This document shows, in pieces, positions 49,302 through 62,018 of a stretch of 64,000 nt of DNA. Below the pieces are notes generated by a model. The model had not been told where the DNA came from. It did not search any database and worked only from the letters and a program-made list of their open reading frames with translations. A program made the position numbers and the translations under genes. How positions within the stretch are numbered: the first letter of the stretch is position 1; every line of letters begins with the position of its first letter. The stretch comes from a virus: positions 50,869 through 114,868 of IMG/VR virus record IMGVR_UViG_3300021962_000041. The stretch is one strand, 5' to 3'.

Positions 49302-51140
49302 TTATACAAAAATCCCCAACATTTCTGGTACAATTTGCATATATGGATTTGCCATATTTACACTGGAGACACTTGGTTCTTCGGTTTCGACTCCACCTGC
49401 AGAACTATATTGTGGCACTCCAGACATTGGTAAAGTTTGTGATGGTAAGTTTATTGGTACTATTGATGATGTTGCACTTCTCTTAACTGGTTTTTTAATG
49501 TCAGAATGCAATACAAGTTCTGGAGAAACCATATTTGAACTCATTCTTCTCTCTGCATATCCACCATTTCCAATTTCTTTAGTTTTTTTAACCCTCTCTT
49601 CATTAACAAACTTATCTAATTGACCTTTAAATGTTGTTAGTTGAGATGCAAGAATTTGTAATGCACTCTTCATTGTTGAGTTTGATACTACCAGTCCCCC
49701 AACAGCATCAGAAAAAGTAGTCCACATTCTTCCAGCATTATTATTAATATCTTTCAAAAGTGGTCTGAACATCATTGCTGCTGATGCACGAATAACTTCT
49801 TCACCAGGAGCAAGCATCGCTGGAACACTATCAACACTTCCGGATCCAGTGCCACCAACAGTTCCACCTAATGATCTTTTAATTGGTGGTTTTTGGCTTT
49901 TTGCCTGTTTTACAATATCAATGATATTTTGAGCACTAGATGGTCTTGCAGATCCAGATCGTAATGCTGACAATTCTTCAGCAGAAATTGTTGTTTTATT
50001 TCCTTTTAAATTTGTAAATGTTCTAATACCAGAAGCTGCAGCGGGAGCTGGGACTGGTTTCGGTGCTCTCAATCCAAATTTTGCTAATCCAGAAGAAATT
50101 GTAGCAAGAATTCCACCTCCTATAGCACCAGTTGCAACTAATCCACCCAATAAAGGTAGAAGAACAAATGCTCCAAAATTTGTTACATCATCTGATGTTC
50201 GACCTTGATCCGTTGGTATTGGGTATATCTTTCCATCAGACCCACGATAAAAACGTTGTGGATCAAATTGACGAGTAGGTTGATCACCAGGTTTTGGTTG
50301 ATTGACTGGTGTTGGTCTAGGAATTAAACCAAATAGTGGAGAAAAAACTCTGGTTCTTTTTAAAGTTTCTGCAAGTTTTTCAGCAGCGGCACCGCCAATA
50401 TCTTTTATGCAATTTAAAACTGGACCACATCCCCCGCCAGCAGGTCCGCCTCCACTAGGTCCACCTCCCCCTCCTGGTTTTCCACCACCTGGTGGTTTTG
50501 GTGGTCTCTTAAATAAATCAACTATTCGTTTTAAAGCACTAACAATCTTTAAGAGTTTATATGCACCATAAAGAGCAAGTAACTCTTTCCAATGATTTGC
50601 AACAAATTTGAAGAATTTAGCAAGTTTTTGTTGATTTGCTGGATTTTCTAACCACTTGAACGCATTATTAACCAATAATCCAGTTACAATAATACTAAAG
50701 AAATCTAATATTTTTTGGAATATACTTTTTGCTGGAGTTGTTACAACATCAAAGGTTCTCATAATACCAGAACCAAATTGTCTTACAGACTCAATAGCTT
50801 TTTCTTTTGCTCCTGCCCTTTCTCTTGTTACTCTTATTTTGCTAGCTCGTAATGCCTGTCTCTTTTCAGTGATCCTATTTGCAAAATCAAGAGATAATTG
50901 TTTTTGAATTTCGATTAGAATTCTATTTGTTTCTTGTAAATTTACATCCAGACTCGTTGTTTCTGCCTTTAGACTAGATCCTACAGTACCACGTCTTTCG
51001 CCGCCAATAAAACTAAAAGTAGATCTTTTTAATCTTGGACTAGAAGCAATCTGAGCACCAGTCATTACCGAAGAAGATATGTTTCTTCTACTTAACTTTG
51101 GTAATGATGGTGCTCTGTAAATCTGGTTGTTAAATTCCAC
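49302..51140 (-). CDS. Tape-measure-like / baseplate hub protein
   Basis: Helical N-terminus, GGTVGG..DSVPAMLAPGEEVI motif; follows gp26-gp51. Confidence 0.7.
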   Translation of the reverse strand: MEFNNQIYRAPSLPKLSRRNISSSVMTGAQIASSPRLKRSTFSFIGGERRGTVGSSLKAETTSLDVNLQETNRILIEIQKQLSLDFANRITEKRQALRASKIRVTRERAGAKEKAIESVRQFGSGIMRTFDVVTTPAKSIFQKILDFFSIIVTGLLVNNAFKWLENPANQQKLAKFFKFVANHWKELLALYGAYKLLKIVSALKRIVDLFKRPPKPPGGGKPGGGGGPSGGGPAGGGCGPVLNCIKDIGGAAAEKLAETLKRTRVFSPLFGLIPRPTPVNQPKPGDQPTRQFDPQRFYRGSDGKIYPIPTDQGRTSDDVTNFGAFVLLPLLGGLVATGAIGGGILATISSGLAKFGLRAPKPVPAPAAASGIRTFTNLKGNKTTISAEELSALRSGSARPSSAQNIIDIVKQAKSQKPPIKRSLGGTVGGTGSGSVDSVPAMLAPGEEVIRASAAMMFRPLLKDINNNAGRMWTTFSDAVGGLVVSNSTMKSALQILASQLTTFKGQLDKFVNEERVKKTKEIGNGGYAERRMSSNMVSPELVLHSDIKKPVKRSATSSIVPINLPSQTLPMSGVPQYSSAGGVETEEPSVSSVNMANPYMQIVPEMLGIFV

Positions 51141-61145: not shown

Positions 61146-61237
61146 GATGATTTACTTATAAAGCCACTGAATGTATGATGACAGCAGTATAGTCATCAAC
61201 GCAATCGCAGCAGTTGAAGATACAATAACTTGTGCCA

Positions 61238-61336
61238 TCACTTTACTCCAACTAGTTGTGCTAGTTGTGCTTGATGACGACGCTCTTCTTTTTGCTTTTG
61301 TTCTTTAATAAGTTGAAGGAAGTTAAGTTTTTTCAT
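61238..61336 (-). CDS. Small basic peptide (MKKLNFLQLIKEQKQKEERRHQA...)
   Basis: ATGA overlap with the upstream peptide. Confidence 0.55.
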   Translation of the reverse strand: MKKLNFLQLIKEQKQKEERRHQAQLAQLVGVK

Positions 61337-61491
61337 TGTGCCACCTCCGCATTTCTGCAGGGGCGATATGCTACACCACGATATTTGTTTTGTGGATGAG
61401 CAGGAGCGTGTGTTTGGGTATACCAAGACACATACTCTTTCTTTGCATCTTCGGTGTCATATTGACACCCTCTGTAAACGACTTTAGACAT
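61333..61491 (-). CDS. DUF4278-like 'downstream peptide' (two YRG motifs)
   Basis: MSKVVYRGCQYD...KYRGVAY; AAGGAG SD; directly 3' of a riboswitch-like aptamer. Confidence 0.8.
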   Translation of the reverse strand: MSKVVYRGCQYDTEDAKKEYVSWYTQTHAPAHPQNKYRGVAYRPCRNAEVAQ

Positions 61492-61523
61492 TAGGTTTTC
61501 TCCTTAATTTTGAGGCTAAAGAG

Positions 61524-61692
61524 CGTTCCTTCAGTCGGCTTTTGCGTCTATGGGACAAGTTTTTGGAGAGACCTGTTTAATCTCCCAAATTAGATCATTC
61601 TTTGCTTGTTTAGGAATATCAGTCTTTTGGACTCTTCCTACCATCAATTGTGCTTGTAGGCAAGTGAGAATGATTGCTTCCATAGATGAACG
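61524..61692 (-). ncRNA. Glutamine-riboswitch-like aptamer 2 (Downstream-peptide/glnA type) with ORF-containing P2 loop
   Basis: 5' CGTTCA-TCTATGG ... CCATAGA-CGCAAAAGCCGAC-TGAAGGAACG 3'. Confidence 0.65.
61531..61683 (-). CDS. 50-aa hypothetical protein nested in aptamer 2 (MEAIILTCLQAQ...TCPIDAKAD)
   Basis: Read by eye; ATG within the P2 5' strand, TGA within TGAAGGAACG. Confidence 0.65.
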   Translation of the reverse strand: MEAIILTCLQAQLMVGRVQKTDIPKQAKNDLIWEIKQVSPKTCPIDAKAD

Positions 61693-61948
61693 TTCCGTTC
61701 CGAGTCGGCTTACTTCCGTCCTATTTAATTTTTAGCACCTTGTAATCACATCCTTTCGGAGTTCTAATAGCAATTGGTCTTCTTTTCTCTGGTGAACAAC
61801 ATCGTCGTTTTTAACGATGTCCATTAGTTCCCACGCTGCGTTACAACTTATTGTGACTGGAAATTCAGTCTTATTAGGTTGTGGTGAAGCAACAGAAAGA
61901 AGTGGAACCCATGCTAAAAGCAAAAGTGCTTTAGTCATAGGATGAACG
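61691..61948 (-). ncRNA. Glutamine-riboswitch-like aptamer 1 (glnA type) with ORF-containing P2 loop
   Basis: 5' CGTTCA-TCCTAT ... ATAGGA-CGGAAGTAAG-CCGACTCGG-AACGGAACG 3'. Confidence 0.6.
61732..61938 (-). CDS. 68-aa putative secreted protein nested in aptamer 1
   Basis: Signal-like N-terminus MTKALLLLAWVPLLSVA; two Cys. Confidence 0.7.
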   Translation of the reverse strand: MTKALLLLAWVPLLSVASPQPNKTEFPVTISCNAAWELMDIVKNDDVVHQRKEDQLLLELRKDVITRC

Positions 61949-62004
61949 TTAGGAGGGTATTATACTCCTATTCATTGTATATAGGTGAAAAATATCTTGA
62001 AATA

Positions 62005-62018
62005 GTAACAATAGATAC
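62005..62018. promoter_or_regulatory. NtcA-binding site (GTA-N8-TAC)
   Basis: GTAACAATAGATAC; AT-rich -10-like TATATACAAT starting 21 nt downstream on the minus strand. Confidence 0.6.

Follow-up and report, generated by a model that had tools for sequence, protein, structure and literature searches.

A predicted double-core glnA-type riboswitch with small-protein genes in its P2 loops in freshwater cyanophage DNA

Riboswitch aptamers are usually treated, and searched for, as compact non-coding modules. The available descriptions of glutamine riboswitches (Weinberg 2010; Klahn et al. 2018, PMC6212724; Huang 2019; the S-CREM1 paper, PMC9964418; Sherlock et al. 2022, PMC9481103) deal with compact aptamers and with doublets of independent, pseudo-cooperative units. 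In the model for the glutamine-I leader of Synechocystis gifB, glutamine binding withdraws the C that follows paired region 1 (P1) and thereby frees the ribosome binding site, which makes the element an ON switch (PMC6212724). The present analysis concerns a glutamine-riboswitch-like leader of a different layout, located in a 64,000-nt stretch of freshwater cyanophage (cyanomyophage) DNA (IMG/VR record IMGVR_UViG_3300021962_000041, positions 50,869 to 114,868; the whole stretch is hereafter referred to as the window). On the minus strand, between 61948 and 61524, two glnA-type aptamer units are followed by a Shine-Dalgarno (SD) sequence and a DUF4278-like gene, and each unit encloses an entire open reading frame (ORF) in the loop of its paired region 2 (P2).

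The leader is probably a two-core glnA-type riboswitch, each P2 loop of which carries a real small-protein gene, with reciprocal control of the enclosed and the downstream genes; this reading is drawn from comparative analysis of the sequence. The literature search yielded no account of nested genes or of base pairing across the units, in agreement with the original prediction for this locus, which knew of no description of the arrangement, although an earlier note of large P2 insertions may exist.

Layout and family identity of the leader

All coordinates given below are those of the window and refer to its minus strand, and the helix positions were re-checked by extraction of the strands. 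The elements of the leader and the gene that follows it are listed in the order of transcription.

61944-61948, minus strand: P1 strand 1, CGUUC, invariant in all relatives
61937-61942, minus strand: 5' strand of the P2 of unit 1 (P2a), UCCUAU, containing the A and U of the ORF1 AUG
61732-61938, minus strand: ORF1, 68 amino acids (aa), within the P2a loop, with a signal-peptide-like N-terminus and two conserved cysteines
61719-61724, minus strand: P2a 3' strand, AUAGGA, 212 nt from UCCUAU
61711-61718, minus strand: joining region J2/3 of the outer core, CGGAAGUA, the E-loop strand of the glnA consensus, fitting the RF01739 consensus positions
61703-61710, minus strand: S1, AGCCGACU, 5' strand of the inter-unit helix H, with cross-unit covariation; read earlier as P3 of unit 1
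61696-61700, minus strand: P1 strand 2, GAACG, extracted
61695-61688, minus strand: junction palindrome GAACGUUC, shared between the units
61688-61692, minus strand: P1 strand 3, CGUUC, which could form an inner P1 hairpin with strand 2 and a GAA loop (61695-61693)
61680-61686, minus strand: 5' strand of the P2 of unit 2 (P2b), UCUAUGG, with the whole ORF2 AUG inside; covaries across 61 haplotypes
61531-61683, minus strand: ORF2, 50 aa, within the P2b loop, its final codons (I-D-A-K-A-D-stop) being aptamer core
61547-61553, minus strand: P2b 3' strand, CCAUAGA, 126 nt from UCUAUGG
61541-61546, minus strand: J2/3 of the inner core, CGCAAA, degenerate relative to CGGAAGUA
61533-61540, minus strand: S2, AGCCGACU, 3' strand of helix H, its last U being the first nucleotide of the ORF2 stop
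61524-61532, minus strand: J3/1 GAAG (61532-61529) and P1 strand 4 GAACG (61528-61524), read and extracted
61499-61524, minus strand: expression platform with anti-SD GCUCUUUA (61524-61517) and SD region UAAGGAGA (61506-61499), as predicted in folds
61333-61491, minus strand: DUF4278-like (IF17-like) gene of 52 aa with two YRG motifs and an AAGGAG SD ahead, identified by profile matches

The 3' core of unit 1 reads CGGAAGUAAG-CCGACUCGG-AACG, with its last nucleotide at 61696, and thus comprises CGGAAGUA, AGCCGACU and CG-GAACG in that order; the UGA stop of ORF2 (61533-61531) falls inside CUGAAGGAACG. The original prediction had placed both units with their ORFs, the SD and the YRG-containing peptide on the minus strand, and reading of the sequence and extraction of the helices recovered every one of these elements in its place. 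TCCTAT/ATAGGA and TCTATGG/CCATAGA are complementary as claimed over the distances listed, the start codons lie in the 5' strands of P2 to the extent that had been described, and ORF2 does cross the 3' core and stop inside it. The 52-aa peptide encoded downstream matches DUF4278 (PF14105) with an E-value of 5.6e-5 and 23.9 bits, against a Pfam gathering cut-off of 25.3, and phrog_5049 with an E-value of 3.6e-11. The leader thus stands ahead of a DUF4278/IF17-like gene, which is the association described for glutamine-I riboswitches (PMC6212724).

The native window has no match to a glutamine riboswitch family in Rfam, either at the gathering threshold or at E-values up to 10. When the searched sequence was made to end with the 3' half of unit 1, RF01739 (glnA RNA, glutamine-I; gathering threshold 35 bits) was the sole family reported, as a weak truncated match of 13.2 bits (E 1.7). 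The effect of collapsing the loops was examined with natural short-P2 relatives that have the same cores. Unit 1 in its short-P2 form matches RF01739 with 28.9-35.6 bits in DSL-LC02, DSL-LC03, S-SRM01 and P-SSM2, the short-P2 unit 2 of S-CREM1 with 33.5 bits, and the short-P2 unit 2 core exceeds the 35-bit threshold in 16 of 20 IMG/VR loci (35.1-44.9 bits). In matches of relatives, as in the truncated match of the window, CGGAAGUA is aligned to the J2/3 positions of the RF01739 consensus. RF01704 (Downstream-peptide, glutamine-II; threshold 33) has no match in the window, and its lone match among the relatives, at 26.4 bits in unit 1 of P-SSM2, is sub-threshold.

These matches indicate that the cores are of the glnA (glutamine-I) type and not of the Downstream-peptide (glutamine-II) type. 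The original prediction had named both families together, and the glnA part of that assignment stands while the Downstream-peptide part falls. Its expectations that covariance searches would miss the arrangement and that collapsed loops would restore a match are borne out by the contrast between the native sequence and the short-loop relatives (28.9-44.9 bits), and the failure of Rfam on the native sequence is attributable to the ORF inserts in the P2 loops. These loops measure 212 and 126 nt here as compared to 3-12 nt normally, with P2 in the same register as in the short-loop relatives, that is, right after CGUUCA and closing before CG(G/C)AA. P1 is represented by two CGUUC and two GAACG strands, all invariant, so that covariation cannot assign their partners. 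The E-loop strands are divided between the units, unit 1 having CGGAAGUA without GAAG and unit 2 having GAAG with CGCAAA, and CGGAAGUA and GAAG come together in one aptamer only if the cores are nested, as discussed below for the outer core.

Long-range helices and the nested genes

Covariation of P2 was examined in 205 ORF-bearing loci comprising 61 distinct P2b haplotypes, P2 having been part of no search pattern. Pairs 1-5 of P2b are paired in 92-100% of the haplotypes, with 3-4 types of pair, positions 3-5 showing CG, UA, UG and AU. The mean number of paired positions among the first 6 is 5.36, as compared to 4.34 with shuffled partners (maximum 4.69 in 2000 shuffles) and 2.2-3.6 in slid registers. 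The P2 of unit 1 shows rich covariation among the short forms in the relatives, and its ORF-bearing variants (UCCUAUG/CAUAGGA, UCCAAUGAUA/UAUCAUUGGA and UCUCAUGCU/AGUAUGAGA) differ in sequence with the pairing kept. Unconstrained RNAalifold, applied to 34 freshwater sequences, recovers P1 and P2 and adds to P2 an extension that covaries, the 7-bp P2b of the window is predicted by unconstrained RNAfold, and the leader folds more stably than its shuffles (z = -4.19). Taken together, covariation and folding indicate that both long-range P2 stems are maintained by selection. The conservation and covariation of these stems in homologues, by which the original prediction was to be judged, were therefore found, and they join the conservation of the enclosed ORFs in supporting its view of P2 loops enlarged to hold whole genes.

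S1 and S2 both read AGCCGACU in the window and follow their J2/3 regions as segments of 8 nt, and each could either fold on itself as a hairpin or pair with the other. Two IMG/VR scans were performed on S2 variants with S1 left free and absent from every search pattern. In S-CREM1, S1 is AGCCGACG and S2 is CGCCGACU, and in the ORF-bearing S-SRM01 the reverse holds (S1 CGCCGACU, S2 AGCCGACG); in both phages the hairpins within the units are broken and the pairs across the units are kept. Among the scanned variants, a C at the first position of S2 is accompanied by G at the eighth position of S1 in 53/53 loci, a U at the same position by A in 52/57, and a G at the eighth position of S2 by C at the first position of S1 in 17/17. 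In an alignment of 58 short double units (A7), pair 49:96 occurs as UA in 27, AU in 18, GC in 12 and otherwise in 1, and pair 40:103 as AU in 47, CG in 6, GU in 2 and otherwise in 3, while the outer pairs of the P3 hairpins within the units are unpaired in 36 and 40 of the 58 variant rows. Covariation thus shows that S1 (61710-61703) pairs with S2 (61540-61533) instead of the two forming separate P3 hairpins.

Since J2/3, P3, J3/1 and the 3' strand of P1 follow one another in the known junction, a helix H that is shared between the units implies a nested pairing. The outer core would then consist of strand 1, P2a, CGGAAGUA, H, GAAG and strand 4, with the full glnA consensus, and H would enclose a degenerate, permuted inner core made up of the strand 2:strand 3 hairpin, P2b and CGCAAA. 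In the short double units, the nested P1 is the minimum free energy (MFE) solution in 109/118, and the enforced nested fold is lower in energy than the tandem fold in 118/118. The leader is accordingly best read, on comparative grounds, as one interlocked double-core sensor.

ORF1 is intact at 68 aa in 21/21 freshwater copies and, with lengths of 66-72 aa, in 63 loci, and hhalign relates it as a homologue to the marine family of PSSM4_169.2 and PHM2_179 (99.4%, E 3e-21). ORF2 is intact in 84/84 freshwater copies. The ratio of nonsynonymous to synonymous substitution rates (dN/dS) in its interior is 0.12, with dS 0.93, and its variability at the three codon positions is 0.136, 0.064 and 0.306. 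In codons 44-50, which overlap the core, the proportion of synonymous differences (pS) drops to 0.12 from 0.53 in the interior, and codons 45-48 and 50 are invariant at their third positions, which shows that these nucleotides are constrained at the RNA level as well as by their coding. In 200/205 loci an ORF of 50 to 64 aa runs from the AUG in the P2 5' strand to a stop in GAC-UGA-AGG, and the freshwater and marine ORF2 families are homologous (hhalign 97.9%). In the ORF1 and ORF2 families alike, the N-terminus is hydrophobic and two cysteines spaced by about 35 residues are conserved, and the AlphaFold2 model of ORF2 is a helical hairpin (predicted local distance difference test score 82.9). 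These patterns indicate that both nested ORFs evolve as proteins under purifying selection.

Neither ORF has a Pfam match; in the PHROG comparison ORF2 gave a weak match to phrog_504 and ORF1 none, and a Foldseek search of the ORF2 model against the Protein Data Bank (PDB) returned nothing below an E-value of 2. The possibility that ORF1 and ORF2 are paralogues was considered and set aside, the freshwater families being unrelated by hhalign and the marine families reaching only a suggestive 76.6% (E 2e-5).

An IMG/VR search guided by the ORF2 protein identified 393 relatives, of which 80 loci were fetched, and in 80/80 the same halves flank homologous ORFs, with the 5' half CGUUCAUCUAUGGAA invariant and the 3' half AUAGACGCAAAAGCCGACUGAAGGAACG showing few changes. 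A pattern scan in which CGUUCA and the 3' core were fixed 145-175 nt apart added at least 120 further contigs, mostly marine. Isolates with the layout are P-SSM4, P-HM2, P-SSM2, S-SRM01, DSL-LC02 and DSL-LC03. P-SSM4 and P-HM2 have genes in both units (PSSM4_169.2/169.3 and PHM2_179/180), and P-SSM2 has a short unit 1, the only unit detected by Rfam, with an ORF in unit 2. Both nested gene families thus occur in marine (P-SSM4, P-HM2, P-SSM2) and freshwater phages. The unit-2 ORF of P-SSM2 (NC_006883; 49 aa, positions 941-1090 of the fetched locus, L086) is absent from the annotation of that record.

Among 185,579 prokaryote species genomes (one per species), the ORF-bearing pattern occurs once, on a 3.7-kb scaffold (JBIPLY010000594.1; locus L477) of a metagenome-assembled genome labelled Acetobacteraceae, and this scaffold probably comes from a cyanophage and was binned wrongly. 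The layout is confined to phage and common to hundreds of cyanophages. Related sequence is also present in the RNA libraries of three studies, the contigs and their uncovered flanks being uninformative on transcript ends or levels. Some of these contigs, from freshwater and aquaculture, keep ORF1 and have a P2 loop of 7-20 nt in place of ORF2, with joints at 61547/8 to 61685/6.

A further gene, a 193-aa homing-endonuclease-like ORF, lies exactly between units 1 and 2 in locus L031 (609-1190) and also in L036. The L031 insert matches phrog_314 (homing endonuclease) with an E-value of 1.6e-6 and has no Pfam match. Its site is the loop of the inner P1 hairpin in the nested fold, and all three terminal loops of that fold therefore take inserts, namely ORF1, ORF2 and the homing-endonuclease-like gene.

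Proposed control and competing explanations

In the MFE fold and in both constrained folds, GCUCUUUA pairs with the SD region of the DUF4278-like gene. The modelled accessibility of this SD goes up (0.09 to 0.34) when the 3' half of the aptamer is held, in 27/32 freshwater relatives, a trend that fits the model for gifB (PMC6212724). The nested AUGs lie in strands of P1 and P2, as do the flanks of about 15 nt to each side of them that ribosomes would require, and translation of ORF2 would also traverse CGCAAA, S2 and part of GAAG. Folding of the sensor is thus expected to preclude translation of the nested ORFs, and the reverse. Binding of glutamine would stabilise the fold and shut the nested ORFs, and at the same time the C after P1 would leave the anti-SD and the SD of the DUF4278-like gene would open. 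The sensor would be unfolded when glutamine is scarce or when ribosomes occupy the nested ORFs, and termination at the ORF2 stop would leave strand 4 and most of the anti-SD covered by the ribosome as well.

Under such a mechanism, the nested microproteins and the IF17-like peptide would most likely be expressed reciprocally, in dependence on glutamine. A more specific version is offered only tentatively, as possible rather than favoured: an interlocked two-core sensor would share its nucleotides with the two microprotein genes, ligand and ribosome would compete for them, and the two-cysteine microproteins would be made at low glutamine and the DUF4278 peptide at high glutamine. If true, this would constitute a gene-within-aptamer toggle through which a large share of T4-like cyanophages read the nitrogen status of the host.

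Several observations weigh against the reading of the leader as a two-core sensor with reciprocal control. The nested ORFs lack a clear SD, and their translation is predicted from their evolution only. Close relatives differ in whether they carry ORF1 and ORF2, from which it follows that the sensor works without them and that coupling need not explain their presence. Each unit alone deviates from the consensus, with no GAAG in unit 1 and CGCAAA replacing CGGAAGUA in unit 2, and the loops of 126 and 212 nt have to be closed by stems of 5-7 pairs, most of them A-U. For the full 488-nt leader of the window, the tandem fold has an energy of -119.7 kcal/mol as compared to -116.6 kcal/mol for the nested fold, and the unconstrained MFE structure pairs strand 1 with the junction palindrome. 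The invariance of the four P1 strands means that covariation cannot separate a nested P1 from a tandem P1 with a pseudoknotted H. In the marine relatives, the same model of SD accessibility gives no consistent trend of sequestration.

The nested genes could be passengers in permissive loops, just as homing-endonuclease genes lodge in the loops of group I introns, with the riboswitch governing the DUF4278 gene alone and no coupling having been selected. This is unlikely, and yet it keeps real weight because the relatives differ in carrying the ORFs. Unit 1 has the short form in 113 loci and carries an ORF in 63, unit 2 occurs as often with a short loop as with an ORF among the matches listed, the RNA-library contigs have ORF2 replaced exactly at the P2 stem, and the third loop of L031 holds a homing-endonuclease-like gene. 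Against this stand the location of the AUG inside the P2 5' strand in every lineage, the passage of ORF2 through the core in the same frame and to the same stop in all but five of the 205 loci, and the age of both gene families, which are common to marine and freshwater phages. Moreover, whatever their origin, a ribosome on the nested ORFs must unfold the sensor.

The original prediction had envisaged two tandem glutamine aptamers carrying genes in their P2 loops, which in the published view of such doublets would be independent, each with its own P1, P2 and mini-P3, and would act pseudo-cooperatively. A catalogue of 157 doublet glutamine riboswitches described as pseudo-cooperative (PMC9481103) offers a precedent, single short-P2 units exceed the Rfam threshold alone, and the tandem fold of the full leader is, as given above, slightly lower in energy. 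Nevertheless, this part of the prediction does not hold up well and the architecture is considered improbable, since the 8-nt segments pair across the units, and since S-CREM1, S-SRM01 and more than 120 variant contigs have lost the 2-bp P3 hairpins within the units but preserve the cross pairs by double changes. In addition, the degeneracy of the units is complementary, unit 1 being without GAAG and unit 2 without GGAAGUA, higher scores are reached by alignments that cover the two units together (44.9 bits; 44.0 bits over 99 nt, PMC9964418), and a unit 2 with an ORF hardly ever occurs in the absence of unit 1.

It is very improbable that the aptamers are relics in which ORF insertion destroyed the sensor and the flanks were kept as initiation regions or coding sequence. 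The failure of the native sequence to match Rfam, the departure of the cores from the consensus and the presence of start codons in the 5' halves and of coding sequence in the 3' half of unit 2 would be expected of such relics. However, compensatory changes keep the long-range P2 and, in the ORF-bearing S-SRM01, helix H; the third positions of ORF2 codons 45-48 and 50 are invariant against the interior pS of 0.53, and the 5' half CGUUCAUCUAUGGAA is invariant in 82 loci despite differing upstream sequence. That the inserts are structured RNA domains rather than genes, for which the stability of the leader fold relative to shuffles and some covarying internal stems in RNAalifold could be cited, is hardly credible in the face of the dN/dS, dS and codon-position values of ORF2, the reading frame kept in 200/205 loci across lengths of 50 to 64 aa and the confident helical hairpin modelled by AlphaFold2.

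Flanking features and comparison with known systems

Other features of the region, upstream of the leader and downstream of the DUF4278-like gene, are as follows.

62005-62018, minus strand: GTA-N8-TAC, NtcA-box-like, upstream of the leader, read from the sequence and of putative function
61950-61970, minus strand: 5' hairpin UAGGAG/CUCCUA of 6 bp with loop UAUAAUACC, stopping 1 nt short of the aptamer and retained in constrained folds
61152-61336, minus strand: two overlapping micro-ORFs, further genes of the operon, of 32 aa (basic, 61336-61238) and 29 aa (hydrophobic, 61241-61152)

A stem of at least 5 bp precedes the aptamer in 95/104 unique upstream segments as compared to 37/104 shuffled ones, with about 50 different pairs of arms. 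The conservation of this 5' hairpin implies that the transcript probably starts upstream of 61950-61970. TATAAT at 61964-61959 is a doubtful -10 box, being located in the loop of the covarying hairpin, and the end of an RNA contig near 61953-61962 was given no weight, as it falls inside the same hairpin. Candidates for the start site include a strong promoter-like site, TTCACA-18-TATAAT (62062-62033), and a TATATA motif (61983-61978). The former overlaps a terminator-like hairpin (62073-62046) that follows the upstream 122-aa gene (phrog_485). GTA-N8-TAC occurs within 130 nt upstream of unit 1 in 130/174 related loci, mostly 54-63 nt ahead of CGUUCA and at 70 nt in the window, and is adjoined by a conserved CTTGAC-TA(T/A)ATA that resembles T4-type late promoters.

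The ATG of the 32-aa micro-ORF overlaps the stop of the DUF4278 gene (ATGA), and its product has a weak match to phrog_545 (E 2.9e-4). The window, which belongs to a contig of 115 kb, also carries thyX and three tRNAs. In P-SSM4, a manA RNA (RF01745, 184 bits; 419-604 of locus L085) immediately precedes the riboswitch operon and shares sequence with the annotated coding sequence PSSM4_169.1 (474-647), and a manA RNA beside the glutamine element is also present in loci L214 and L224.

The layout, as read here, would mean that a validated aptamer class tolerates, and has long kept, whole genes in its hairpin loops, with codons shared with the ligand-binding core and with two cores fused via a swapped helix. 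Standard scans miss such sensors, and P-SSM4 and P-HM2 are without an annotated glutamine riboswitch at this locus. The layout would also be a naturally occurring example of an RNA on which the sensing of a ligand is forced to compete with translation. A widespread circuit is suggested, through which cyanophages of both marine and fresh waters may read host glutamine, and hence nitrogen status, and set the levels of an IF17-like putative glutamine-synthetase inhibitor and of the two nested microprotein families.

Among the described systems, the Synechocystis gifB/IF17 glutamine-I leader (Klahn et al. 2018, PMC6212724) has the same core, CGUUC-A-P2-CGGAAGUA-P3-GAAG-GAACG-C, the same place in the 5' leader of a DUF4278/IF17-like gene and the same platform, in which the C after P1 and the next nucleotides pair with the ribosome binding site. 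The phage leader differs in having two cores with a shared helix in place of the P3 hairpin, and P2 loops of 126-212 nt, each with a conserved gene whose start codon lies in the stem, so that the family model misses the native sequence. The doublet glutamine riboswitches (Sherlock et al. 2022, PMC9481103) likewise have two units in a row; they are described as independent and pseudo-cooperative with no mention of nested genes, whereas in the phage units covariation shows cross-pairing. The short-loop relatives of the phage locus are presumably among these doublets.

The tandem glycine riboswitch consists of two complete junction aptamers joined by tertiary contacts and serving one expression platform. 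It resembles the phage leader in having two homologous cores that form one unit with a single platform, and differs in that the phage cores share a Watson-Crick helix, with strands apparently swapped. Group I introns of T4-like phages, such as the td intron with I-TevI, carry a mobile endonuclease ORF in a peripheral loop, and the likeness extends to the gene in a terminal loop, the interference between translation and folding and the sequestered start. In the phage leader, however, the host RNA is a putative metabolite sensor and not a ribozyme and, unlike I-TevI, the products of the ORFs are conserved microproteins, some codons of which also belong to the sensor core. In the Salmonella mgtA leader (mgtL) and in leader-peptide attenuators, translation of a short ORF alters the fold of the leader; those ORFs matter by their codon content, whereas the phage ORFs would encode proteins of 50-72 aa, are under purifying selection and are located inside the aptamer itself.

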